From a virus (lineage: Duplodnaviria; Heunggongvirae; Uroviricota; Caudoviricetes), in IMG/VR virus record IMGVR_UViG_2541047728_000006, positions 1 through 10,287 of that record: a stretch of DNA of 10,287 nucleotides; one strand, given 5' to 3'. Position numbers: made by a program. Of this stretch, positions 3,201 through 6,200 are shown in pieces. Position 1 is the stretch's first letter. Every line of letters starts with the position of its first letter.

Positions 3201-6200
3201 GTGTATTTTTCAAACATCGCGCGTTTATCGAGCAATATACGCATAAACAACGCCGCGCCGACGGTATTGGTGACCATCATTGGCGCAGCAATATTACTCA
3301 CCAGACGCACCGCATCTTCATAAGGTCGGGCGATCGCCAGGATAATCAACATTTGCACCATTTCAGCGACGAACGTGACGGCACCGGCGGTAATGGGGTT
3401 AAAGACTTTATCAGTGCGCCCGCGACGGATCAGGATGCTGTGTACCAGGCCACCGAGCAATCCTTCAACGATGGTCGAGATCATGCAACTTAGCGCGGTC
3501 ATGCCCCCCATCGAATATCGATGTAACCCGCCGGTCAGACCAACCAGCCCACCGACGACCGGACCGCCGAGTAAGCCGCCCATTACCGCACCTATCGCAC
3601 GGGTATTGGCAATAGAATCGTCAATGTGCAACCCAAACCAGGTGCCCATGATGCAGAAGATGGAAAAGACGATGTAGCAGAGAAATTTATGCGGCAGACG
3701 AACCGTGACCTGCATTAACGGTATGAATAATGGCGTTTTACTCATTAACCACGCAATGACTAAAAAAACGCACATCTGCTGAAGCAGCAGCAACACCAGA
3801 TTAAAATCGTACATACCCGCAAACCACACTTCCCTTTAAAACGCGTAACATACATTGCTTGCGTTTAACTTTCTTTGAACTCTTGCAGAAAAATGAGAAT
3901 TCGTGAGTACGATCACTCAAAATCGCCTGGCAAAAATAAAATCACCCTATAGATGCACAAAAAACGGGCAAAACTACCTGGTTCGCAAAACTGCGTCTAA
4001 AGTTAAACCGGGACCTCGCGAGCAAGGGTGAGACGATGGCGCTTTACACAATTGGTGAAGTGGCGTTGCTTTGTGATATTAACCCTGTCACGTTACGCGC
4101 GTGACGCAACATTTTTAAAAATCGACGAAGATCGTCCAGGAGCGCCATTTTTCAAGGGTTGGACAGATGATTCGTTTTCGATGTCGACGAACTTCGACGG
4201 ATTTCGCCGATAAAAAGTGTCCCATACATGCCCCATAGATGCCCCATAGGCAATATTACCAATTGACACTGGTTATCCACACAGCTAAAAATAACACCTG
4301 TACATAACTACAGTTACAGGAGGGGGTTATGCGTGTTGAGATCTGTATCGCTAAAGAAAAAATCAGCAAAATGCCGAAAGGTTCTGTTCCTGCTCTGCAG
4401 CAAGAAATGCTGCGCCGCATAGGTAAGCGATATGACGATGCAGATGTGATCGTTAAATCTGCCAGCAATGATGGACTCACCATTTTAAGAGCCGTCGATA
4501 AAGAATCAGCACTGGAGTTCGTACAGGAAACACTACAGGAAGTCTGGCAAACCGCGGACGACTGGTTTATGCAATAACGGGATCATAATCACTGTAATGA
4601 CCTGTTTTGTATGACATTCTTAAAAGGCATAACAACGAGCTTGTCGTTTCAAGCGACTTCTTCTGGTTGGGGAGCCTGAGTGCTCCCCTTTTTTTCAGCT
4701 AAAAATCAGCATACAGCCATACAATCCCGCACAGGCCACCACCGGCACCACAAAATCCATCAGACTGGCCACATTCCACACACGCGGATCAAAACCGCCC
4801 CACCACGGCATGTTCTGTCTGTGACCATCACCAAAACGCTTAATCCAGCGATATTCTGCCTGGGTATGTTCTCGGGCAATAAAGAACGTACAACCCGCTA
4901 TCGCTCCGTAAACCCAGTCACCGGTAATGCACCCGACCAGCCCCTGCACGGCTACTGCACAAATTGCATGAAGTATCGGCGTGATATCCATCTGCTCCCC
5001 TTAAAACCACTCCCTGAGCGGGCGCTCTGGTGTAACCACCCACTCACGGAACACGGATTCATCAAAGCCATCGTCAAGAAGACGAATATTAACAAAGTAC
5101 CCTTCGTCTCGCGTGTATTCAGGCTCCCCGTCAGCAGAAACACCTGACTCACTGAACGTAAAACCAATCTCATCAACCAGAACGGCATTCTGCAGCTCTT
5201 CGTCCTCTTCCCAGTTAAGTTTCCTGAGAAATGCCCTGAAATCTGCTTTATCACTGAAACGCAACGTGAAATCTCTCACTCCACAACCTCCCCAAGCTGC
5301 GCATCTGTTAGCTCTTTATGCCAGAGACGAAAATTCCTCACATGCCCAAATAAATGGCGTAATCCTGCTGTAGTTTGTCCACCAATGCGAATGGTTGCTG
5401 TACTCCGGATATATTCCCATGTGGTTTTTGTTTCGCTGGATATACGCCCGTTACTTACTGCACATGTAGACTGATCTGACTTTACACGCATCCCCATAAC
5501 CATTTTTTTCAACGATGCGTTTTCGTTAACACGCCTATTTGATCCACCAATATCGCAATAAGGAAATCCGTCTGGCCCATCTGCCGAAGATCCGAAGCCA
5601 AGAATAATAGCCGCTCCGGTTTGATGACCGCCGGTATCAAAAACACGTGGCGCTGCATTTGGCGTTTTATACCAGTTCTTATGTACCTCACAAAGAACCG
5701 TAAAAGGAAGATTATAAAGATTATTCTTAATCGGAACTGTAACCATATCGCTTGCGCGCGTCGCCGCCGTCGTTCCTGATATAATAAAAGATGATACACA
5801 CGAACCATCCTCAACCTGAGGGGTGGCCAGATAAATATAGTCACCAGATTCAACGACACCACCTTTTTTTGGTGCGTATTGTATTGCAGAGGTTATGTAA
5901 GTTTCTTTACTTGCTTGAATCGTTGCCTCTACAAAAATCCAGCCCGTAGCTTCATCTTTGTTAACTCGTGCGGTGAGCCTGTCGGCAGCTACACCGGTGA
6001 TTTCAACCAATAAAGACCGCGTATTAACAATGGTATATCCAAGATTAGATGAAGCGCTGCCATCGAAGGCTTCAAACCTGATCCTTAACAGGAGTTCCAA
6101 ATCCGTTTTAAATCTGCACGATGTCGTCACACACTTATTATCGCCTGATACATCGACAGCCCCCGAGGTTGAAACTACTGCCATATTAAGGGTTGTACTT

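Follow-up and report, generated by a model that had tools for sequence, protein, structure and literature searches.

What do the two small genes behind the lateral tail fibre gene of a lambdoid prophage encode, and do they serve the fibre? We addressed this question in a stretch of 10,287 nucleotides (nt), IMG/VR virus record IMGVR_UViG_2541047728_000006 (hereafter the window), in which Escherichia coli chromosome (yehR, yehS, btsR and btsS; 382-3829) is fused to the end of a lambdoid prophage. The genes, called here ORF92 and ORF98 after the lengths of their products in amino acids (aa), follow the fibre gene stf:

5276..7336, minus strand: stf, 686-aa side (lateral) tail fibre (PF08400, E 1.3e-67; phrog_1419)
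5001..5279, minus strand: ORF92, 92-aa acidic cytoplasmic alpha/beta protein (phrog_1361), GTG start
4695..4991, minus strand: ORF98, 98-aa inner-membrane protein with three predicted helices (phrog_1443), ATG start

The answer that we favour, with a confidence that stays somewhat short of even, is a joint one: ORF92 would be a partner of the fibre, and ORF98 a separate, envelope-directed prophage cargo gene. The interval would then hold two functionally separate genes on the late tail transcript.

Two genuine genes of unassigned family

A preliminary description of the interval had placed the pair at 4695-5279, with a GTG start overlapping the stf stop codon, a 9-nt gap between the genes and a Shine-Dalgarno motif on each, and these details are all found on the minus strand. 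The ORF92 GTG shares a 4-nt GTGA overlap with the stop codon of stf, which ends in GAG GTT GTG GAG TGA, and a GGGGAGG Shine-Dalgarno motif lies 7 nt 5′ of it. The ORF98 ATG stands 9 nt past the ORF92 stop codon (TAA GGGGAGCAG ATG) and is preceded by a GGGGAG motif. ORF92 is indeed acidic, with 23 Asp/Glu against 11 Lys/Arg residues and a net charge, by sequence count, of about -12.

ORF92 and ORF98 are genuine genes and not chance open reading frames (ORFs), as follows from full-length PHROG matches, RefSeq annotation, the substitution pattern of ORF98 and the conserved frame and length of ORF92. Residues 1-92 of ORF92 align with positions 1-92 of the 92 in phrog_1361 (E 2.5e-39), and residues 1-91 of ORF98 with positions 1-91 of the 97 in phrog_1443 (E 1.9e-48), both families being annotated as of unknown function. 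The ratio of nonsynonymous to synonymous substitution rates (dN/dS) of ORF98 against its E. coli relatives is 0.12-0.22 (around 0.15) at a dS of 0.7-1.1, values indicative of strong purifying selection. In the ORF92 family, frame and length are retained down to approximately 30% identity, together with the motifs M-x-D..L-x-F, D-x-I-G, G-Y-x-V-N-x-R and P-x-R-x-W. Conservation among relatives, the check by which the preliminary description would have had the pair stand or fall, was therefore found for both ORFs. AlphaFold2 (AF2) models of both are of high confidence, with predicted local distance difference test (pLDDT) scores of 91.9 for ORF92, modelled as a compact alpha/beta protein, and 92.7 for ORF98. 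That one or both are non-functional leftovers or chance frames has a negligible probability in our view: RefSeq calls both 'hypothetical protein' (WP_001204578.1 and WP_000355615.1 in strain IAI39) and no experimental record was found, and against this stand the full-length family matches, the selection on ORF98, the confident folds and the persistence of ORF92 length and motifs across phage families. Two further ORFs that overlap the pair, 4680-5147 (plus strand) and 4952-5254 (minus strand), found no support as genes.

Neither protein could be assigned to a known family in the preliminary description, and this still holds: Pfam, NCBIfam, PADLOC, PDB sequences and the literature gave no match, and the only families that matched were PHROGs of unknown function. 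For ORF92, Pfam returned nothing at E<=1, and the sole match of its profile among PDB sequences, Tetrahymena telomerase p19 (E 0.005), was judged spurious; its fold shows no similarity to solved fibre chaperones or adhesins. For ORF98, a profile search of PDB sequences found no relative and Foldseek found no PDB match below E 4. Its sequence matched none of the annotated superinfection-exclusion or defence models of PHROG, PADLOC and Pfam, and none of the GtrA, acyltransferase or glycosyltransferase domains of Pfam and NCBIfam. A profile search of 1.8 billion representatives also brought up several proteins of more than 1200 aa with multiple matched stretches, which are PKD-like or other repeat proteins and were set aside as compositional or repeat artefacts. 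Neither protein turned up in the literature when sought by topic or under its accession, PHROG id or RAST FIG id, and no expression or phenotype data were found. No characterised tail-fibre assembly protein accounts for the pair by homology.

ORF92 and the lectin-type fibre

The fibre itself has a composite structure. Residues 1-131 of Stf form a prophage tail-fibre N-terminal domain (PDB 9e7m matches aa 1-94), and Ala/Ser/Thr/Lys-rich, coiled-coil-like repeats come next. The C-terminal portion of approximately 430 aa is homologous to Rcc01080, the head-spike fibre of the Rhodobacter capsulatus gene transfer agent (RcGTA): NF048003 (GTA_spike_fiber) matches aa 329-528, and PDB 6tb9 (Rcc01080) matches aa 298-543 (window 5709-6445) at E 1.6e-6. 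Distant relatives of this C-terminal domain end in a concanavalin A (ConA)-type Laminin_G_3 lectin domain, and by this homology the tip of the window's own Stf, for which Pfam makes no lectin call, may be lectin-like as well.

Identifying homologues with one profile of the Stf C-terminal domain (424 positions) and one of ORF92 allowed us to survey how the two genes are linked. Of 80 related viral contigs, 75 show the order fibre, ORF92, ORF98, and one more carries all three with ORF92 standing apart from the fibre gene. In every context examined, an ORF92 homologue adjoins a homologue of the Stf C-terminal domain. These contexts span at least six phage types (lambdoid, Mu-like, P22-like, T1-like, T5-like and Seuratvirus) and include loci in Comamonas, Pantoea and Chelativorans. 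The pair is present in the virulent phages SLUR29 (T1-like), IrisVonRoten/Bas32 (T5-like) and VogelGryff/Bas25 (Seuratvirus), and homologues of ORF92 were detected by tblastn in 195 phage records, many of them virulent. Further occurrences of the fibre/ORF92 pair are a head-proximal one in a siphovirus and others in a podovirus and in a P22-like contig. In a Leclercia Mu-like myovirus prophage, the pair lies between DNA-circulation and baseplate-hub genes, without ORF98, and a Caudo_TAP gene distinct from ORF92 serves the prophage's own fibre. In Chelativorans sp. (locus L022, 3526-5590), an alphaproteobacterium, a 492-aa fibre-domain protein with Laminin_G_3 is followed by an ORF98 homologue and then by an ORF92-like ORF; the last two genes are thus swapped, which indicates that the linkage outlasts rearrangement. 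As the two genes neighbour each other in all contexts examined, synteny strongly supports ORF92 as a conserved partner of the Stf C-terminal fibre domain. A separate observation concerns contig L166, where a homologous fibre/ORF92 pair is located in the head module and not in the tail module.

Most economically, ORF92 would be dedicated to folding or assembling this fibre, or would join it as a small accessory subunit, and translational coupling to stf would deliver the product where and when the fibre C-terminus emerges. There, ORF92 would most likely aid folding or oligomerisation of the RcGTA-fibre-like/lectin domain, or might stay on as an accessory subunit, and stf and ORF92 would form a two-gene cassette that moves between phages as a unit. 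The protein would thereby do for this fibre the job that Tfa, gp38 or gp57A does for others, by an unrelated fold.

Known systems offer partial likenesses. Lambda Tfa, Mu gpU and P2 gpG (Caudo_TAP, PF02413) are encoded by small genes immediately 3′ of a fibre gene, are co-expressed with it and are exchanged together with the fibre C-terminal domain, much like the role proposed here. By position, ORF92 belongs with the tail-fibre assembly class, lying directly 3′ of the fibre C-terminal domain and being co-inherited with it. Homology to lambda Tfa or Caudo_TAP was nevertheless rejected, as there is no match to PF02413 or to any tail-fibre assembly or chaperone PHROG. The fibre-assembly role that the preliminary description derived from coupling to stf is therefore upheld in its tie to the fibre, with synteny across at least six phage types, and not as a case of Tfa homology. 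The second likeness is to the RcGTA pair rcc01079-rcc01080 (GhsA/GhsB), whose glycan-binding fibre Rcc01080 is the homologue of Stf aa 298-543. Rcc01080 binds capsule polysaccharide and acts together with a small partner from a separate gene (PMC7296036, PMC5026251). An equivalence of ORF92 to that partner, the base protein Rcc01079, was rejected, since the folds (jellyroll versus alpha/beta) and the gene positions (upstream versus downstream of the fibre) differ.

Two observations weigh against a simple fibre-partner role. The sequence class of ORF92 does not follow the fibre tip, and one subtype is followed by a second short fibre gene, which would suit an adaptor: an ORF92 homologue of the subtype with less than 50% identity to the window copy is followed by an inserted gene of approximately 700-1100 nt in 46 of 47 loci, an insert that is never present next to homologues with at least 55% identity. 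Where loci were scanned, the inserted gene codes for a short fibre that carries Peptidase_S74. Such three-gene lateral-fibre cassettes (a fibre with the Stf C-terminal domain, an ORF92 homologue and a short S74 fibre) occur in VogelGryff, IrisVonRoten and SLUR29 (loci L177, L178 and L179), in many E. coli prophages and also in loci L004, L006 and L007, and the short S74 fibre of VogelGryff carries the annotation 'putative lateral tail fiber chaperone'.

These cassettes suggest that ORF92 could be a structural adaptor, or branch point, which binds the first fibre and docks the short S74-chaperone fibre to give branched lateral fibres, the window ORF92 then being the version that remained after loss of the branch. 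We consider this rather unlikely, although it is the strongest competitor for ORF92. In its favour are the arrangement of fibre, ORF92 homologue and short S74 fibre in the virulent T1-like and T5-like phages, Seuratvirus and the E. coli prophages, the near-complete division of the insert between subtypes, the S74 domain that it carries, and the precedent of phage DT57C, for which branched lateral tail fibres are established (PMC4728585). The multi-gene lateral fibre locus LtfA/LtfB of DT57C and DT571/2, in which an S74 short fibre comes after the main fibre, resembles the ORF92 loci of IrisVonRoten, VogelGryff and SLUR29. However, both DT57C fibres end in S74 domains, and the DT57C papers, as searched, describe no small intervening gene, so that branching is reported there without such a gene being mentioned. 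The window, phage 21, ev243, the Leclercia Mu-like prophage and contig L166 all retain ORF92 with no second fibre gene, and subtype and insert may correlate simply because three genes were inherited together as a block.

ORF98, a conserved membrane protein at the edge of receptor-binding modules

ORF98 belongs to a large and strongly conserved family. It comprises at least 538 clusters at 90% identity, and all 39 diverse members that we aligned match phrog_1443. The alignment has 23 invariant positions and 15 more at >=90% conservation; the invariant residues include H8, Q16, C34, R40, E41, Q44, E46, Y47, R48, W49, R58, P62, W64, F67 and C87, and H42 is conserved at >=90%. Many of these fall in one invariant loop, REHTQAEYRW...MPWWGGFD, with the positions R40 E41 (H42) Q44 A45 E46 Y47 R48 W49 I50 and P62 W64 F67. 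The preliminary description had counted two hydrophobic helices. The AF2 model instead predicts three (4-23, 26-53 and 74-97), that is, an N-terminal hydrophobic hairpin and a C-terminal transmembrane (TM) segment; a TMHMM run by the annotators of phage 21 gave a two-TM model. The conserved basic residues, five or six in number, all fall within the loop 40-73, and under the positive-inside rule the protein would have its N-terminus inside, followed by the hairpin, a cytoplasmic loop, the third TM segment and an outside C-terminus. Confinement of the basic residues to this loop points to a conserved polar site at the cytoplasmic face of the membrane. No lipobox was found: the N-terminus, MDITPILHAIC, has no basic n-region, Ile precedes C11, and C11 is variable in the family.

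The gene keeps varied company. It lies directly 3′ of the lectin fibre in the window and its relatives, 3′ of undescribed fibre-like proteins that follow J, and 3′ of pectate-lyase tailspikes in a podovirus, a Citrobacter prophage and a multi-tailspike Salmonella myovirus. The P2-like phiHAP-1 has it between Tfa and the sheath gene, epsilon15-like phiv142-3 between tailspike and holin, and a P22-like phage after tailspike and OafA, next to int; frequently it is the final gene before the prophage end. ORF98 was found in 74 phage records, mostly of temperate types, and is absent from the three virulent fibre loci checked (T1-like, T5-like and Seuratvirus), although these retain an intact fibre cassette. 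Of 5426 complete E. coli genomes, 1763 hold sequences related to the ORF98 region, at up to 7 places per genome, and only 364 match at least 80% of the ORF92-ORF98 interval. Beyond Escherichia, loci are present in Leclercia, Silvania, Aeromonas, Comamonas, Pigmentiphaga, sphingomonads, Halomonas and Desulfovibrio. On the Aeromonas rivipollensis chromosome (L075, 6001-6309), a homologue of approximately 59% identity stands alone, with a Pirin gene on one side, RIO1 and two lipid A acyltransferase genes on the other and no phage genes nearby. In four other Aeromonas loci (L009, L012, L018 and L020), an unannotated ORF of similar size lies upstream of the ORF98 homologue. Across 55-59 loci from non-Escherichia genomes, no conserved neighbour was found on either side beyond the fibre domain in 9 loci.

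Several individual loci deserve mention. In P22-like vB_EcoP-611R6 (L172, 1905-3788), the ORF98 homologue comes after a tailspike, an OafA-type O-acetylase and a 37-codon tail-fibre remnant, and this remnant suggests that ORF98 arrived with a piece of a fibre gene by recombination. The virulent Salmonella Kuttervirus KFSST3 (L174, 4980-5150) has a truncated, unannotated ORF98-like remnant of approximately 41-50 codons among its tailspike genes. Three short contigs carry copies that are 62-80% identical to the E. coli phage gene, namely L006, from a metagenome-assembled genome labelled Collinsella sp., and L037 and L039, which are 877-bp scaffolds of Desulfovibrio piger; their non-enterobacterial assignments probably reflect contamination or mis-binning and not the true host range.

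Two further features of the window bear on expression of the pair:

7355..7384, minus strand: intrinsic-terminator-like hairpin in the lom/stf gap (13-bp stem, 7 GC pairs, T-run)
4639..4695, no strand assigned: convergent 3′ region of ORF98 and the dinI-like gene, two hairpins

The first hairpin (7384-7355) separates lom from stf-ORF92-ORF98, and phage 21, which has no lom, has an annotated terminator at the corresponding place, between J and stf and just upstream of the latter. Its presence implies that stf, ORF92 and ORF98 need antiterminated late transcription, and both small genes are apparently made from the late tail transcript. In the convergent region, the hairpin GGGGAGC...GCTCCCC with its run of seven T (4669-4695) is a plus-strand terminator for the dinI-like gene and overlaps the ORF98 stop codon, and a weaker minus-strand hairpin (4654-4639) lies downstream of ORF98.

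Taken together, the variety of its receptor-binding partners, its absence from intact virulent cassettes and its stand-alone Aeromonas gene speak for ORF98 as cargo and not as a fibre factor. The protein would be a self-contained, three-helix inner-membrane protein outside the fibre machinery, which temperate phages carry at the 3′ edge of the receptor-binding module. Its use to the phage would most likely be to change how the inner membrane or envelope of the infected or lysogenic cell works, for instance by blocking superinfection or by changing the supply of a surface-glycan receptor. An envelope- or inner-membrane-directed function of this kind (exclusion, receptor masking), to the benefit of that cell, is a tentative proposal, which we hold less firmly than the joint explanation as a whole. 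The preliminary description had named the small membrane protein as a candidate exclusion or conversion factor, a plausible guess that remains one. The edge of the receptor-binding module is a classic site of exclusion and conversion genes, and the enrichment of ORF98 in temperate phages, its moron hot-spot position and its absence from the three virulent cassettes checked all agree with such a role.

A number of findings pull in the other direction. ORF98 is strongly conserved whatever the type of receptor-binding protein beside it, and copies in E. coli, Aeromonas and Comamonas are 55-60% identical; to our knowledge, such conservation, with an enzyme-like invariant set of His, Glu, Arg and Cys, is unusual for exclusion factors. 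Homologues also occur in lytic Aeromonas jumbo phages and as stand-alone chromosomal orthologues. ORF98 is tightly coupled to late genes behind a terminator, no sigma70-like promoter was found on its strand between the lom terminator and its own stop codon, and in many phages its start overlaps or abuts late structural genes, an overlap that makes it look late-expressed rather than lysogen-expressed. The conserved loop, if cytoplasmic as the topology suggests, would also be on the wrong side of the membrane compared with known tail-acting exclusion proteins.

A competing view would make ORF98 a membrane protein of late lysis (holin, antiholin or lysis-timing factor) that happens to close the tail operon, much as the T4 holin gene t is located after gene 38. 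ORF98 resembles class I holins and Phage_holin_8 in its length of approximately 100 aa, its three hydrophobic helices, its apparent late co-transcription and a similarity over one TM1-TM2 stretch, with weak matches to Phage_holin_8 (E 0.003, 18.1 bits) and to the holin family phrog_198 (E 0.042); in three contexts, it lies directly upstream of holin/endolysin cassettes. The 18.1 bits are, however, below the Pfam cut-off of 26.4, and the matches appear in only 2 of the 39 ORF98 members. Unlike holins, ORF98 has an invariant polar loop and no charged C-terminal tail, and its conservation is far above the usual holin level. It is mostly unlinked to endolysin genes: in lambdoid, P2-like and multi-tailspike phages the lysis genes are distant, and in P22-like phages it is not adjacent to them either. 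Stand-alone chromosomal orthologues are hard to fit to a lysis role. We regard this identity as improbable. An even smaller probability goes to the view that ORF98 is needed for biogenesis or function of the adjacent receptor-binding protein, for instance as a membrane platform for fibre or tailspike assembly. Its consistent place 3′ of receptor-binding genes in siphoviruses, myoviruses and podoviruses, often with a stop/start overlap, would suit such a platform, and the distribution largely refutes it: the Mu-like prophage and the three virulent loci checked (T1-like, T5-like and Seuratvirus) have fibre and ORF92 but no ORF98, the same ORF98 accompanies any receptor-binding fold, and chromosomal copies have no phage neighbours.

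The cargo reading that we prefer for ORF98 can be set beside known morons, such as cor of phi80 and N15, llp of T5, gp15 of HK97, Z/fun of P2, iap of epsilon15 and D3, and Gnarl, which are small genes beside receptor-binding genes or in the fibre-to-att and Tfa-to-sheath slots. ORF98 fills the same slots in lambdoid, P22-like, epsilon15-like and P2-like phages. It differs from them in having no PHROG, Pfam or PADLOC match to such genes, no lipobox and no promoter/terminator unit of its own, in being far more conserved and in having chromosomal orthologues. The Gnarl precedent demonstrates that phage proteins of 40-90 aa can remodel O-antigen (PMC12373910); ORF92 and ORF98 sequences are not in the supplementary data of the Gnarl screen. 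Two possible counterparts were rejected, namely hyp24 of Kapi1, a tested ORF between tailspike and int that is an unrelated 34-aa ORF, and the svsR small RNA of lambdoid prophage NC-SV, which maps to cI and not to the ORF92/ORF98 interval.

A bolder version of the joint explanation, to which we give little credence, would make ORF98 the founder of a class of widespread, enzyme-like inner-membrane effectors and ORF92 a new, non-Tfa class of fibre chaperone or cap. ORF98 would then consist of three helices with an invariant His/Glu/Arg/Cys site at the cytoplasmic membrane face, would have been captured from bacterial chromosomes by temperate phages and would be kept beside receptor-binding genes. 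Receptor specificity and a general switch of envelope or glycan-carrier (undecaprenyl-phosphate-linked) biogenesis would travel as one cassette, giving a Gnarl-like, enzyme-free or mini-enzyme form of receptor masking or exclusion in about a third of E. coli genomes. ORF92 would, in turn, represent a class required whenever lectin-type lateral fibres are engineered or swapped.

The prophage end and what the pair may mean

The remaining genes of the prophage end frame the interval, with the minus-strand order J, lom, terminator-like hairpin, stf, ORF92, ORF98:

8155-10287, minus strand: J
7488-8087, minus strand: lom
4329..4577, plus strand: dinI-like prophage gene, the last before att (PF06183, E 6.7e-17; phrog_189)
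4036..4101, plus strand: truncated mlrA/yehV 5′ end, 22 codons (MALYTIGEVALLCDINPVTLRA) and then a stop codon, at the prophage-chromosome junction

The prophage is integrated in mlrA/yehV, and the 22-codon stump marks where it joins the chromosome. VT1-Sakai and other yehV-integrating phages share this att and dinI end; the att-proximal end (approximately 3831-4574) is 86-93% identical to the ends of the Shiga toxin (Stx) phages VT1-Sakai, YYZ-2008, JLK-2012 and BP-4795, and the dinI-like gene is common to the ends of VT1-Sakai, YYZ-2008 and BP-4795. The tail module is unlike that of these four Stx phages. Positions 3800-5400 are 99.9-100% identical to IAI39 and 36 further complete genomes. 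The preliminary description had set the pair between the tail fibre gene and the att site, which is correct as to position, although the dinI-like gene lies between ORF98 and the att junction. Ahead of that gene, in the 4263-4313 region of the plus strand, is a promoter-like site, TTGACA-18-AAAAAT. Between this site and the start codon, a perfect LexA-box consensus, CTGTACATAACTACAG, occupies 4298-4313, a placement that suggests SOS control of the dinI-like gene. A second LexA-like box with one mismatch is at 4269-4284. The Ala/Ser/Thr/Lys-rich repeat of stf (6600-7000, AT skew to -0.76) spawns several long antisense and out-of-frame ORFs of 94-102 aa on both strands, which are artefacts. The GC content of ORF92 and ORF98, approximately 50-53%, is between the values of the two halves of stf and provides no informative moron signature.

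Fibre accessory genes, and small membrane cargo genes beside receptor-binding genes, are familiar in phages, and the ORF92 and ORF98 families are both unrelated to Tfa, gp38, Cor, Llp, gp15, Iap, Gnarl and holins. In the literature, we found no published account of the strict pairing of this fibre domain with ORF92 in temperate and virulent coliphages, nor of the distribution of ORF98 including its chromosomal orthologues. Which O-antigen-bearing strains can be infected by lambdoid, T1-like, T5-like and Seuratvirus coliphages is determined by their lateral fibres with this lectin-type domain. If ORF92 is an obligatory partner of these fibres, it would represent a new fibre-chaperone or accessory fold and would need to be transferred along with the fibre in swaps for phage therapy or DNA-delivery vectors. 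The fixed place of ORF98 next to receptor-binding genes makes a very common piece of prophage cargo amenable to concrete tests, and its chromosomal orthologues point to a conserved membrane function.

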